64,000 bases of DNA from Patescibacteria group bacterium. Lineage in GTDB: Bacteria; Patescibacteriota; Minisyncoccia; Phycocordibacterales; PALSA-1337. The position numbers were made by a program, and so were the translations under genes. Within the stretch, counting starts at the first letter, position 1, and every line of letters begins with the position of its first letter. Under the pieces are notes generated by a model, which did no database searches, was not told the origin of the DNA, and saw only the letters and a program-made list of their open reading frames with translations. The stretch lies in NCBI GenBank assembly GCA_018970245.1, contig JAGWWT010000002.1, positions 24,067 to 88,066 of the forward strand. The letters run 5' to 3'. Shown here piece by piece: positions 56,410 to 60,179 of this stretch.

Positions 56410-56871
56410 CTAAACATCTATCTCCTCGCCATCCGGAAATATTTCTGATATTTTTTCAGACGTTTCGCGCAATTGTCCGTCGAACAGCAGGTAATTCCCC
56501 AATTGCGTAAATGGCACCCATGCGTACGACCTCACTTCGCCTTTCTTCGGTCTGACATCGTATGTACCGACCAAGCGAAACCCGAAAAAGTATCTTTCCG
56601 AACCGTCGTATTTTTTGCCGTCGCGATTCATTGTGATCACCTTGAATCTGAAACGCACGGGTACATGACTCCGTCCGACTAACTCGAGGGAACTTTTTTC
56701 TATGCCGAGTTCCTCGCGCACTTCTCGATACACGGCATCTTCCAATGTTTCTCCCTGCTCGACTCCGCCGCCCGGAACGGCGAAATACTTATTTTCAAAA
56801 GACTCCAGATTGACAAGGAGAAATTCCTTATTACTGTTCATTATGAGAGCTGATACGCCTTTTCTGTACAT
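56410..56871 (-). CDS. NUDIX hydrolase
   Basis: Nudix box GGGVEQGETLEDAVYREVREELGI. Confidence 0.8.
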   Translation of the reverse strand: MYRKGVSALIMNSNKEFLLVNLESFENKYFAVPGGGVEQGETLEDAVYREVREELGIEKSSLELVGRSHVPVRFRFKVITMNRDGKKYDGSERYFFGFRLVGTYDVRPKKGEVRSYAWVPFTQLGNYLLFDGQLRETSEKISEIFPDGEEIDV

Positions 56872-56901
56872 GGCGATAGTATAACAAAGTAGTAATTACA
56901 G

Positions 56902-57654
56902 TTATATTCTCCTCCTCAACACCGTAATGTTCCGCCCGCCTGGATAAGGTTTCTTGGCCGCATCGAAATCGCTGAAGTCGGAGACGTGTTCCCATTTACT
57001 GGTAGCCTCCGCTTTGGCGATAAAATCATTGATTCTATATAATTTCCTTGTCTCGGTATGTTCTATCACTTTTTTCTCGCCGTTCTCCTCTATCTCCAGT
57101 ATTATCCTTGCGTCAGATAACCCATTTCGCTCATCTATCCATTTAGGATCATAAGTGGTGATCACCTTTACACCGTCTCGCTCCATCTCCCATGTCTGGA
57201 TTCCGAAATCTTCCGGAAAGAAAAGTACGGCTCCGTCCAGAAAGTACAGACCTCCGCCCCTTACAGAGTGTGCCACCGAATCCATATGGCTCTGCAATTC
57301 ATGGTCATCAGTCACATAGAACGAGCCCAGGAAAAGCAAAGCGCAGTCGGCTTGTTTATTCGTGCGGAAGTTTCTTAAATCTCCTCGGATGATTTCGGCC
57401 TTGAGTCCCAAATCTTCTATAGTCTTTGTTGAATATTCGATCATCTCCTCATTCTGTTCCAAACCGACATAGTCGTAGCCTCGCCGGCACAACTCGCTCA
57501 TGTGCGGACTATTACCGGACGCTATCTCCAAGACTGTCTTTACCGGTATCAGCGATTCATTCTTTATGATTTGCTCGAGGAAATCTACTTCCTTCGCGAT
57601 ATCTCGGAATGAAAAAGCTATATCGTAATATTTTGGATTATCGTAGACATCCAT
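56902..57654 (-). CDS. class I SAM-dependent methyltransferase (TylM1/small-molecule N- or O-MTase-like)
   Basis: YYDIAF...VLEIASGNSPH motif I, acidic motif II. Confidence 0.7.
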   Translation of the reverse strand: MDVYDNPKYYDIAFSFRDIAKEVDFLEQIIKNESLIPVKTVLEIASGNSPHMSELCRRGYDYVGLEQNEEMIEYSTKTIEDLGLKAEIIRGDLRNFRTNKQADCALLFLGSFYVTDDHELQSHMDSVAHSVRGGGLYFLDGAVLFFPEDFGIQTWEMERDGVKVITTYDPKWIDERNGLSDARIILEIEENGEKKVIEHTETRKLYRINDFIAKAEATSKWEHVSDFSDFDAAKKPYPGGRNITVLRRRI

Positions 57655-57675
57655 AGGGTCGTAATATTTACAGCT

Positions 57676-58203
57676 CTATACTAAATACTCTCTAATTTCC
57701 TCAAAATCCTCGTATGAGTGATCGTCGCCTTTGCACACAATAAGATCCAGTGACCCAAATTTTCCCTCAGCTTGCTCTCTCCTTATATCTTCCGCCGAAG
57801 CCACGGGATCATGATCATTCTGAATGAGCGTCGTCGGCACGGAATAATCAGATGACCAAGCATCAATATCAAAACGGTTCTTCCTAGCCCATTCCGGAGG
57901 CAAACCTAGAAATACGCACCTGCCTATGCGTTCCGCCGCAATCGTTTTCGAATGAATGGAAAGCATGAACAATACGGTACCTATGGACTTGGCAAGAATA
58001 GCAATATCTCCACTGAAAGATCTCGCCGTATTTGTCAATTTCTTCAGTTCAATCTCCATATCTATCAACTCGCCGCCACTTGCCCAGTGGTCATAATATT
58101 GGACGGAAATTGATTTGAAATCGTCGGCAAAATAATCGCGCGCTTTTTCCGCCCATTCCTTATTTGACGCGCCGTTGCCTGGAATGATCATGAGGTTGCT
58201 CAT
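57676..58203 (-). CDS. alpha/beta-hydrolase (YdeN/RBBP9-like serine hydrolase)
   Basis: 175 aa; IIPGNGAS start and AKSIG nucleophile-elbow-like motif. Confidence 0.55.
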   Translation of the reverse strand: MSNLMIIPGNGASNKEWAEKARDYFADDFKSISVQYYDHWASGGELIDMEIELKKLTNTARSFSGDIAILAKSIGTVLFMLSIHSKTIAAERIGRCVFLGLPPEWARKNRFDIDAWSSDYSVPTTLIQNDHDPVASAEDIRREQAEGKFGSLDLIVCKGDDHSYEDFEEIREYLV

Positions 58204-58212
58204 AATTTCGTG

Positions 58213-58857
58213 TTATTCTCCCAAATGCGCCCGATCGTTCCATGTCGATAGCATCCAGAATCGGCTGAAGCGCTCTTCGCTGTCGTATTTGAAGACCGAC
58301 AGACCCGTATTCTCGATCTCCATGACAGACATAAATCGTCTGCACTCGCGACCGTCCAATTCAGGACCTATGACGACGAGTGCAGCAAGGACTCTCAAAA
58401 ATATGCCGTGAGTGACCACCAACACGGTTTCTTCCGGCCTTGAGGCCAAGTATTGGAGCGCCTTTTGCGCTCTATCCTTCAGATCCTCGAAATTCTCCTC
58501 GTCGGAATGCCTGAAGCCTGGTATATGGAAATTGTCCCACACCGACCGCCATATTTTTTGCTGATCCGGCGACTCTATGACTTGGCCGAAGACAGCGGAC
58601 GGTTTGCGGCGTTCGGCGAACAAGTCCGATGATTCAACGGTTATTCCTAGAGATGAGGCGATTATCCGTCCGGTCTCTTTTGACCTTTCGAGCGGACTGG
58701 TTATGACAGACTTTATGGAAAGTCCTTTGCATCTCTTCGCCAAAAATTCCGCCTGCTTCCGACCGTTATCGCTCAAAGGAGAATGATCCATATTGCCTGT
58801 CCCGATAATATTTCCCTCGCTTTCTCCATGGCGTATCAAGTAGATCGTTTTCTTCAT
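58213..58857 (-). CDS. histidine phosphatase family protein (phosphoglycerate mutase-like)
   Basis: N-terminal LIRHGESEGN catalytic motif. Confidence 0.8.
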   Translation of the reverse strand: MKKTIYLIRHGESEGNIIGTGNMDHSPLSDNGRKQAEFLAKRCKGLSIKSVITSPLERSKETGRIIASSLGITVESSDLFAERRKPSAVFGQVIESPDQQKIWRSVWDNFHIPGFRHSDEENFEDLKDRAQKALQYLASRPEETVLVVTHGIFLRVLAALVVIGPELDGRECRRFMSVMEIENTGLSVFKYDSEERFSRFWMLSTWNDRAHLGE

Positions 58858-58873
58858 TGTCGTTTTGTTCGGA

Positions 58874-58908
58874 TCAACGGCTCATCTATGTTGAGCCATT
58901 AAAACCCC
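58874..58908 (-). promoter_or_regulatory. conserved palindromic element, copy 2 (AATGGCTCA-N7-TGAGCCGTT)
   Basis: fills the 50-nt gap between the wHTH gene stop and the phosphatase start; same orientation and about 27-28 nt spacing to the downstream ATG as copy 1. Confidence 0.55.
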
Positions 58909-59321
58909 TATATTTTCTCGTAGAATACGTGTGCTCCCTCTTTACCGACTTGTCGTATTTTCCCTTCTTTTTCCAGCTCGTCGAAGTACCTAGTAGCCGT
59001 GGCTTCCGATATTCCCAGCATCATTCTGACATGCTCATTGGTGAGCGGCTGATTACCGCTTTCCATGAAATCAAGCAGGGCTTTCTTCTCCTGTTCTTTA
59101 TTCTCCGTCTGCTTGTTCTTGGTTTCGGCAGTAGGCATAGCTGCATTCGGCTTCTTCATAAACTCATATATGCCAAGCCCGACTAGGGCGACCACGGCCA
59201 AGACGACGGAGACCATCGGATTAAGCATGGCAGAAAAAAGCACGAGCAAAGCGGCGATGATTGATATTGTTCCTTCAGGCTTCGAGAACATGGAGATATT
59301 ATACCATTGCTTTCGCTTCAA
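58908..59321 (-). CDS. small membrane-anchored winged-HTH protein
   Basis: TM segment then HVRMMLGISEATATRYFDELEKEGKIRQVGKEGAHVFY; C-terminal HTH paralogous to 52288..53055; start is TTG, or ATG 30 nt in. Confidence 0.5.
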   Translation of the reverse strand: MKRKQWYNISMFSKPEGTISIIAALLVLFSAMLNPMVSVVLAVVALVGLGIYEFMKKPNAAMPTAETKNKQTENKEQEKKALLDFMESGNQPLTNEHVRMMLGISEATATRYFDELEKEGKIRQVGKEGAHVFYEKI

Positions 59322-59323
59322 TA

Positions 59324-59467
59324 TCAGAGATCTGATACATCCTCCATATCCAAATCTCCGTCAGCAACCAACTGCTGTACCTCCTCGTCCAGGTTTTCGA
59401 AGTCCTCAATTTGGTCGGGCTCTATCACGCCGTCTTTGACTAATTCAAGGATTTCGTCGGAGTCCAT
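59324..59467 (-). CDS. unannotated 47-aa highly acidic micro-ORF (MDSDEILELVKDGVIEPDQIEDFENLDEEVQQLVADGDLDMEDVSDL)
   Basis: ATG 2 nt after the stop of the upstream gene and ending 3 nt before the next gene; below the ORF-track size cut-off. Confidence 0.3.
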   Translation of the reverse strand: MDSDEILELVKDGVIEPDQIEDFENLDEEVQQLVADGDLDMEDVSDL

Positions 59468-59468
59468 G

Positions 59469-60179
59469 TCATTTTATCGCATATTTCGCATCTATGAAGT
59501 CTACTAACTTCCGCACCGAGCTCTTAATCTCTTTCTGATCATTGATGCCTGAAGCCACGACGTGCGTCATCCACCACTTCGGAAATTCGTCGCTGATGAA
59601 TTCCTTCCTGATGCTCCCGAAATCCAGCCAACCAAGCCATATGACCCTGTCAAAGAAAGTCTCTGCGACGAAGTAATGCTTGTCTACTGTCTTGGCTGAC
59701 AATCCTTCCTGCTTCAAGAACGACTTGTAATCTGCCAAGACTCCAGCTATCCATTTCTTGAACGGCTCCTGGGCTCTGGTCATCTCCTCGAGCATGGCTT
59801 GATGCTCATCCCACGACATCTCCCTGTTGCCTACGCGCACACGGGGCATAGCGTCACCTTTCTTGCTTTTCGGCTTTGCAGGGTGGCTTTTCTCGTATTC
59901 CAACAGCTTCTCGGACGGTGATATACCTCCCAGACTCTTATGTGGAAAATAATTCCAAGCGTCGGTGACAAGTTCCAGGACATTGTTCAAAATGCTAATG
60001 TCGCCGTTGTCGAACATGGCGATAATCTTCCCCATACCATCACTTTCTTCCTCCTCGTATATGGCGTTTAGCACGTCGGCCAACTCAAAGTCGCTCTCGG
60101 TTTCCTTCAGCATATCAACTATCTCTTGCTCGAGCTCTTTCCGCCGTTCGAGAACTTGTTGTTTCGATTCGGTTTGCAT
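59469..60179 (-). CDS. hypothetical protein
   Basis: 236 aa, acidic N-terminus; no family recognised. Confidence 0.4.
   Translation of the reverse strand: MQTESKQQVLERRKELEQEIVDMLKETESDFELADVLNAIYEEEESDGMGKIIAMFDNGDISILNNVLELVTDAWNYFPHKSLGGISPSEKLLEYEKSHPAKPKSKKGDAMPRVRVGNREMSWDEHQAMLEEMTRAQEPFKKWIAGVLADYKSFLKQEGLSAKTVDKHYFVAETFFDRVIWLGWLDFGSIRKEFISDEFPKWWMTHVVASGINDQKEIKSSVRKLVDFIDAKYAIK

Follow-up and report, generated by a model that had tools for sequence, protein, structure and literature searches.

A low-GC segment of a Patescibacteria genome, probably part of a defence island built of separately acquired modules, with a conserved acidic 47-residue protein

We have analysed a 64,000-nucleotide stretch of DNA (hereafter the window; contig JAGWWT010000002.1, positions 24,067 to 88,066 of the forward strand), whose host is a Patescibacteria metagenome-assembled genome by its NCBI protein names, and in particular a run of minus-strand genes that includes a very small acidic open reading frame (ORF), here named micro47. 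The region is probably the downstream part of a horizontally acquired defence island, low in guanine and cytosine (GC), that was built of separately acquired modules. In the mechanism that we propose, the first module would be a Type III restriction-modification (R-M) backbone composed of Mod, Res, two uncharacterised genes and a 236-aa protein whose homologues habitually end such cassettes. The second would be a 564-nt insertion carrying micro47 and a membrane-anchored winged helix-turn-helix (wHTH) protein, the latter with its own extended -10 signal of the leaderless type. The third would consist of a palindrome-containing junction element followed by a histidine phosphatase gene, and the fourth of genes for a hydrolase, a methyltransferase and a NUDIX hydrolase together with a convergent plus-strand cluster, ended by a second junction element. 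Since such modules would have separate histories, the four enzyme genes would be neighbours by accretion and not members of a conserved pathway. The coordinates of all features are given in Table 1; comparison loci that were fetched are labelled L with three digits, and homologous proteins P with four.

The GC content drops from ~57% to ~45%, from roughly 52-56 kb to the window end. Eleven minus-strand ORFs follow one another head to tail from the window end to 56410, a co-directional block that reaches upstream to the window end and includes the Type III Res gene and the 3' end of Mod. A sequence-only reading of this DNA had described seven genes and the 47-aa ORF, and the ORF list confirms their coordinates and their location on the minus strand. 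The gaps between genes, which it gave as 0-50 nt, measure 1-50 nt, and both distances that it quoted for the micro-ORF were off by one. From the NUDIX gene to the methyltransferase gene the gap is 30 nt, from there to the 175-aa hydrolase gene 21 nt, from the latter to the histidine phosphatase gene 9 nt, and from this to the wHTH gene 50 nt; 2 nt lie between the wHTH ORF (listed start TTG 59321) and the micro47 stop, and 1 nt between the micro47 ATG (59467) and the TGA of the upstream gene (59469-59471). Scans of the window for tRNA genes and Rfam families gave no match.

The modular composition is seen when the window is aligned with related loci. Its Res gene (Pfam ResIII, 5.3e-20; PADLOC REase_III, 1.7e-23) encodes a protein 65% identical to the Res protein of L135, whose gene comes after a Mod gene, and the last 116 codons of Mod present in the window align at 64% identity with the C-terminal 115 aa of the L135 N6_N4_Mtase (536 aa); the 95-aa ORF listed at the window end is an internal-ATG remnant of this Mod. 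The order in L135 is Mod, Res, 236-aa gene, palindrome and histidine phosphatase, and in L003, L135 and L136-138 (four genomes) the 236-aa homologue is directly followed by the palindrome and the phosphatase gene. Blastn homology of the window with this group breaks off at 59473 and is restored exactly at 58907. Because the two genes abut there and homology breaks at these points, 59471-58908, containing micro47 and the wHTH gene, is on this alignment a 564-nt insertion relative to L003, L135 and L136-138; it is common only to L001, which is 95% identical to the window. L135 also has no counterparts of the 137-aa and 226-aa genes between Res and the 236-aa homologue, which makes these two genes a second insertion in the window; their products gave no match in Pfam, NCBIfam, PADLOC or PHROGs and no tblastn match in the fetched loci. 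The same junction of 236-aa gene, palindrome and phosphatase ends a quite different cassette in L136-138 (serine recombinase, Rep, DUF2130, WYL and NYN), while 236-aa homologues end an AAA_13 gene in L083 and an EcoRI-methylase/GmrSD/Dam cassette in L086.

The third and fourth modules are delimited by a 55-nt direct repeat with a 33-nt core, for which 0 chance matches are expected. Copy A is composed of the last 22 nt of the wHTH gene and the palindrome AATGGCTCA-N7-TGAGCCGTT (58876-58900); the palindrome of copy B lies at 53046-53070, and the two copies are 82% identical. The repeat core is an inverted repeat, (TC)AACGGCTCA-N6/7-TGAGCCGTT(GA), and across the window and its relatives the palindrome reads TCAACGGCTCA-N6/7-TGAGCCGTTGA, an 11-6/7-11 layout. 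Copies A and B bracket 5.83 kb that include all four enzyme genes and the convergent plus-strand cluster, and L139, the closest relative, also carries two copies, one at each end of the corresponding segment (~7.4 kb). Nucleotide homology to L135, L003 and L136-138 begins exactly at copy A. The element is found at the junction of the 236-aa and phosphatase genes in L003 and L135-138, and in L071 it borders an R-M-like island. The layout of the palindrome resembles that of an Xer/dif-type core site; it could equally be a terminator-type or RNA hairpin, or an operator. Directly 3' of the wHTH gene it forms a conserved hairpin without a U-tract. Other 236-aa homologues are followed by ordinary terminator-like hairpins whose sequences are unrelated, and a terminator or RNA hairpin may therefore be all that the palindrome is. 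With one U-G-compatible and one disruptive change, its arms are almost invariant, and covariation thus favours neither an RNA nor a DNA role.

The enzyme genes of the locus are ordinary. The NUDIX protein scores 76.7 bits (2.2e-21) against PF00293, its Nudix box GX5EX7REX2EEXGU is intact by inspection (GGVEQGETLEDAVYREVREELGI), and its gene matches the PADLOC candidate family PDC-S07 at 4.9e-10. The histidine phosphatase scores 113.6 bits (1.2e-32) against PF00300 (His_Phos_1), has the RHG motif LIRHGESEGN at residues 7-16, and is 91-92% identical in amino acids to its counterparts in L003 and L135-137. The methyltransferase matches Methyltransf_25 (3.7e-9) and no NCBIfam equivalog. The 175-aa product has a sub-threshold match to Abhydrolase_11 (15.4 bits against a cut-off of 27; E 0.016) and no sequence match in the PDB; its family is conserved in Patescibacteria, and the distant homologues P0304 and P0305 carry PF20408.

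The histories of these four genes differ. The phosphatase gene and the palindrome upstream of it form a block with 82% nucleotide identity to four other genomes, and in those loci (L003 and L135-138) neither micro47, the wHTH gene, the hydrolase, the methyltransferase nor the NUDIX gene lies beside the 236-aa and phosphatase genes. In L139 the order is Res, wHTH, palindrome and hydrolase (92.6% nucleotide identity to the window), then three unrelated genes, then the NUDIX orthologue (78% identical, four genes from the hydrolase gene). The cargo of L139 is hydrolase, S51 peptidase on the opposite strand, aminotransferase, DcsG_N protein, NUDIX, a 414-aa gene, NDK and APH; micro47, the 236-aa gene, the histidine phosphatase and the methyltransferase are missing. 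Since this cargo is largely different, the enzyme set appears to be variable cargo. More distant homologues of the hydrolase occur in yet another context in L141-143, and the methyltransferase has no counterpart in any of the relatives, L139 included. The bracketed segment also contains, on the plus strand at 53297-56344, a convergent cluster encoding a TPP-dependent enzyme, a SAM methyltransferase and a protein of 363 aa that contains a CxxCxxC motif and matches no Pfam family; the cluster may be a small-molecule modification cassette; the TPP-dependent enzyme is split, its N and C halves being separate overlapping ORFs.

The sequence-only reading had instead pointed to one operon of seven genes for processing nucleotide-linked intermediates, a model in which the wHTH protein would be the regulator and the micro-protein a modulator. 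The genes do share a strand, are 1-50 nt apart and have no canonical terminator between them, an analogous set of non-orthologous enzymes surrounds the 236-aa homologue of L082, and the hydrolase and NUDIX genes of L139 have stayed together in a single 7.4-kb segment. Against this model, order and content are unconserved in every related locus, even the closest; the phosphatase moves with the palindrome as a block of its own; the methyltransferase stands without counterpart; and the block contains a conserved promoter-like element and a hairpin. We consider it improbable. As to the co-transcription that was suggested, tight same-strand packing allows read-through, whereas the extended -10 before the wHTH gene and the hairpin that separates this gene from the phosphatase gene speak for transcription boundaries within the block. 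It should be noted that some of these observations weigh against the modular reading, which we prefer. The short gaps and the lack of a canonical minus-strand terminator make read-through across modules possible, and the 236-aa homologue of L082 has an abhydrolase, a histidine phosphatase, a HIT hydrolase and a methyltransferase around it, so that such sites may loosely favour small 'house-cleaning' enzymes.

The 236-aa protein, which would close the first module, is composed of two domains. Full-length homologues are found in a few genomes only, whereas the N-terminal domain (residues 1-95) is 60-70% identical across many Patescibacteria lineages, where it either stands alone or is joined to Zn-ribbon-like, TPR or other C-termini and is usually encoded by the last gene of a defence cassette. 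The C-terminal domain has a tyrosine-recombinase core-binding (CB, SAM-like) fold; a Foldseek search of the PDB with the model was not significant. The protein ends after this domain, with no catalytic RKHRH-Y domain and no Phage_integrase match, and it had no match in Pfam, NCBIfam, PADLOC or PHROGs, nor did a profile of the N-domain among PDB sequences; the exact protein was not found in the contig index. We compared it with stand-alone CB-domain proteins and recombinase-derived regulators (3nrw, SPbeta MrpR 8a0a and phi3T SroF 9rd5). Set against these, it is CB-like and devoid of a catalytic domain, and it differs in that its N-terminal part is a domain specific to Patescibacteria. Related loci often carry large serine recombinases; a search of the window with the L136 enzyme as query gave no match. 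Several N-domain homologues (P0063, P0079, P0089, P0094, P0095, P0105 and P0110) were seen to contain in-frame insertions such as DPTSPRLRRGKEQ and PSSRTQGVHYGAGRG at shared loop positions (alignment A5), and these look as if short GC-rich repeat elements had entered the coding sequence and were translated with it.

A stretch of ~300-550 nt with GC-rich hairpins, conserved at the nucleotide level (70-80%), lies at 51600-52200, at the boundary between high and low GC. Several copies of this type are found around islands carrying the 236-aa gene in other Patescibacteria: L082 (40-343, 3102-3448 and 12364-12575), L002 (4374-4680 and 6293-6529), L083 (5344-5593), L086 (9-65 and 9894-9950) and L110 (69-315). 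A recombinase gene fragment at 51.6-52.2 kb was rejected, all six frames being equally similar, which is the mark of nucleotide-level conservation. The element has no Rfam match and is probably a non-coding repeat or an island-end element.

Within the 564-nt insertion, the wHTH assignment of the sequence-only reading stands, on a sub-threshold profile match only (E ~2e-3), and the listed start probably does not. Translation most likely begins at ATG 59291, giving a protein of 127 aa, the same length as the L139 orthologue to which it is 74% identical and which itself matches HTH_24 at 2.5e-4; the gap to micro47 then becomes 32 nt. The membrane anchor is a hydrophobic N-terminus judged by inspection. 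The promoter-like site before this gene shares the highest consensus score (10/12) in 56.2-64 kb and is the best one there on the minus strand. The site runs over the micro47 stop codon, and 6 nt separate the end of its extended -10, TGgTATAAT, from ATG 59291. TGnTAAAAT is found 6 nt before the wHTH start in L094, L102, L115, L116 and L122, and at the same distance from the wHTH ATG in L139, where the upstream gene is Res and there is no micro47. This conservation of the extended -10 in three different upstream contexts, that is, regardless of what lies upstream, suggests a leaderless wHTH transcript with its own start. The window holds a second gene of this kind at 52288-53055 on the minus strand, 6 kb further on and just past repeat copy B; it encodes a Pro-rich protein whose C-terminal wHTH is the same as that of the 58908-59291 product, and its orthologues (46% identity) come directly after micro47 in L094 and L122.

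The micro47 ORF is not unannotated, as had been thought: NCBI/GenBank already lists it as hypothetical protein KGI50_05745. Its very acidic character is confirmed (19 Asp/Glu and 1 Lys in 47 residues; computed isoelectric point ~4.05), and an identical 47-aa product is called on other contigs. A large protein collection contains 163 clusters of the family. The 120 clusters listed are 74-100% identical over their full length and nearly all 47-48 aa long, and clustering at 50% leaves 36 representatives, nearly all stand-alone proteins of 40-99 aa, with two longer ones that carry the motif at the N-terminus. In 35 DNA copies the variability (minor-allele fraction) at codon positions 1, 2 and 3 is 0.125, 0.07 and 0.34, while the 80 nt on each side are unconserved, with a variability of ~0.6 (0.59-0.61). 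Third-position-biased variation between variable flanks points to purifying selection on a protein and not to a conserved DNA or RNA element, and on this pattern micro47 is a genuine, highly conserved small protein. By position it is not conserved at homologous loci, a check that the sequence-only reading had set: it is missing from L003 and L135-L138, where the phosphatase follows the 236-aa gene, and from L139, where the wHTH gene comes after a Res gene. Two copies have an in-frame stop, in L100 (871-999) at codon 43 and in L117 (373-420) at codon 16; some copies thus appear to be decaying despite strong purifying selection on the family.

Alignment of the family shows two L-x-x-LV-x-DG-x-I/L-x-x-D/E repeats in which the acidic positions are individually conserved. 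The profile PF22746 (SHOCT-like_DUF2089-C; Pfam gathering score 27 bits) scores below cut-off on the window protein (14.2 bits, E 0.034) and at 24.0, 24.4 and 29.0 bits on relatives, with two matched stretches, P0232 alone passing (29.0). An AlphaFold2 model (pLDDT 89) has helices at 3-12, 17-24, 28-35 and 41-44, that is, two bihelical units. It had no informative structural neighbour, and micro47 had no sequence match in the PDB and none in the scans of the window proteins against Pfam, NCBIfam, PADLOC and PHROGs. The two units of ~20 residues with the pattern L..LV.DG.I..D/E..F resemble those of SHOCT and SHOCT-like domains (PF22746; PMC3581485, PMC11237479), and just as SHOCT is joined to the C-termini of many unrelated proteins, the micro47 gene lies at the 3' ends of unrelated genes. 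It is unlike SHOCT in being a stand-alone, strongly acidic protein of 47 aa that is confined to Patescibacteria metagenomes and tied to defence islands. For SHOCT, a test of oligomerisation gave no support (PMC3581485), and SHOCT-like domains have been proposed to help assemble membrane-proximal complexes (PMC11237479). Two ideas about micro47 were discarded. Gaps of 1, 2, 3, 5, 6, 9, 11, 17, 21 nt and so on from the upstream gene, with varying frames, tell against a split-off or frameshift-fused C-terminal domain of that gene, and no C-terminal fusions were present among the representatives; on inspection, DGD/DGV fails at positions 1, 3 and 12 of an EF-hand-like Ca-binding loop.

The family is confined to Patescibacteria metagenomes and was not found in 2.9 million IMG/VR viral contigs, nor in PHROGs or PADLOC. 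Its genomic contexts were determined in 43 metagenome loci and three long contigs, with 41 loci assessable for spacing. The micro47 start lies at most 21 nt past a same-strand upstream frame in 26 of the 41 loci, and at most 42 nt in 32. The upstream genes belong to at least 12 unrelated families, many of them defence: Type I HsdR or complete HsdMSR (L098, L130, L134), Type III Res with or without Mod (L100, L101, L116, L133), DUF2726 (L104, L133), DUF4411 (L102), a Schlafen-type helicase fused to an S24 peptidase (L113), an SMC_N/AAA_21 ATPase (L106) and the PADLOC candidate PDC-S18 (L099), while AbiU2 lies two genes upstream in L095; the remaining upstream genes encode an M16 peptidase or are without annotation. 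On both sides the neighbours fall into many unrelated clusters and singletons, and a single 858-kb contig holds two micro47 copies in different islands. A wHTH gene of the membrane-anchored or Pro-rich type follows micro47 in about six of 35 loci. Two points count against making much of these contexts: the defence association comes from ~45 loci, many on short contigs, without a matched background control, and the compact genomes of the candidate phyla radiation normally have short intergenic distances, so that tight spacing upstream of micro47 is weak evidence of coupling.

That a near-invariant small acidic protein stands behind so many unrelated enzymes points to a generic role and speaks against a specific antitoxin. 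The protein could be a DNA mimic or brake, could bind a conserved host factor, or could be the wHTH protein's partner. We infer that micro47 is a generic protein-binding or nucleic-acid-mimicking accessory of mobile defence cassettes and not the partner of a single enzyme. If it mimics DNA, it would either shield the incoming island in a new host, as an anti-restriction protein, or act as a brake on the island's own nucleases. With 40% acidic residues and one basic residue, and with its Asp/Glu positions individually conserved, it lies on mobile islands beside Type I and III R-M, DUF2726, HNH and helicase genes; a mimic of a generic kind could be encoded next to a wide variety of unrelated defence enzymes that act on DNA, and extreme conservation despite changing neighbours fits a conserved generic target. 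The known mimics ArdA and Ocr are likewise acidic and carried by mobile elements (PMC2731889, PMC3439906), and share with micro47 a very acidic composition and an R-M context. No similarity to them in sequence or fold was found, micro47 is a third to half their size, and it lies beside the island's own R-M genes whereas Ocr and ArdA are encoded in phage early or plasmid leading regions. We regard the mimic as possible, if on the unlikely side.

Similarly tentative, and unlikely, is a wider proposal: that micro47 represents a new Patescibacteria-specific family of defence-island accessories, a generic acidic modulator that is DNA-mimic-like or binds a conserved target, is co-expressed from the 3' end of unrelated R-M or abortive-infection cassettes and moves with them, and, by extension, that the CB-fold 236-aa protein and the 11-6/7-11 palindromes would make up an Xer-type hotspot of cassette exchange. 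A more specific alternative is that micro47 works with the wHTH protein that follows it, as an acidic anti-repressor or partner switch, or as a SHOCT-like adaptor of a membrane-proximal complex. A wHTH gene lies ~20-32 nt downstream in the window and in L001, L094, L115, L116 and L122, a matching gene start is kept in L102, and for SHOCT-like domains, which co-occur with wHTH regulators, a role in bringing proteins to the membrane is predicted (PMC11237479). This neighbour is however present in only ~6 of 35 loci, the wHTH orthologue of L139 occurs with no micro47, a promoter signal of its own precedes the wHTH gene, and an acidic protein is unlikely to bind the anionic inner membrane leaflet, all of which leaves the partnership doubtful. 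That micro47 is an antitoxin paired with the upstream gene, as its small size, acidity, tight spacing and some toxin-like neighbours (DUF4411, AbiU2, HEPN-like) might suggest, is very improbable, since it has no constant partner (at least 12 unrelated upstream families, while the listed clusters stay at least 74% identical), no DNA-binding domain, and a position downstream and not upstream of the putative toxin.

Table 1. Features of the low-GC end of the window, and positions of the repeat element in comparison loci
Feature	Position	Strand	Basis or remark
Mod 3' end (Type III-like, N6_N4 methyltransferase)	63648..64000	-	frame open to window end
Type III restriction Res, 781 aa, helicase-nuclease	61313..63658	-	Pfam, PADLOC
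137-aa protein	60878..61291	-	no family match
226-aa protein	60196..60876	-	no family match
236-aa two-domain protein	59469..60179	-	N-terminal helical domain and CB-type C-terminal fold
micro47, 47 aa, acidic, two SHOCT-like bihelical repeats	59324..59467	-	Patescibacteria-wide family
Promoter-like site CTGATA-18-TATAAT with TG extension	59298..59327	-	consensus score
Membrane-anchored wHTH protein, 127 aa	58908..59291	-	listed ORF runs to TTG 59321
55-nt direct repeat, copy A	58875..58929	-	putative module boundary
Histidine phosphatase, branch 1	58213..58857	-	Pfam His_Phos_1
175-aa probable alpha/beta hydrolase	57676..58203	-	sub-threshold Abhydrolase_11
Class I SAM-dependent methyltransferase	56902..57654	-	Methyltransf_25
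NUDIX hydrolase	56410..56871	-	Pfam NUDIX
55-nt direct repeat, copy B	53045..53099	-	directly upstream of Pro-rich wHTH gene 52288-53055
Repeat element, L139	~6925-6990 and 14323-14377
Repeat element, L003	572-610
Repeat element, L135	8714-8750
Repeat element, L071	6147-6164

Genomic islands that carry R-M systems have already been described in Patescibacteria (PMC12455944). The region analysed here is like known defence islands and hotspots in its low GC content, its R-M genes, its mosaic content among close relatives and its bracketing direct repeats; it is unlike known hotspots in that no recombinase gene was found in the island and that the bracket is a 55-nt repeat with an 11-6/7-11 palindrome. 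A literature search found no description of the micro47 family or of its 3' placement behind diverse defence cassettes, nor of the cargo segment between the repeats and the CB-fold protein that goes with it. Patescibacteria, whose genomes are tiny, were for a long time regarded as poor in defence systems; their islands nonetheless exchange R-M and other defence cassettes. With 163 clusters and at least 74% identity among those listed, micro47 is a candidate for a common accessory of such cassettes, be it a regulator, a brake or an anti-restriction factor, and it is small enough for direct testing in a heterologous host. The locus is also a warning that tight same-strand packing in such genomes does not mean a common pathway, and its repeat with the palindrome, together with the CB-fold protein, offers handles on how cargo may be swapped at these hotspots.

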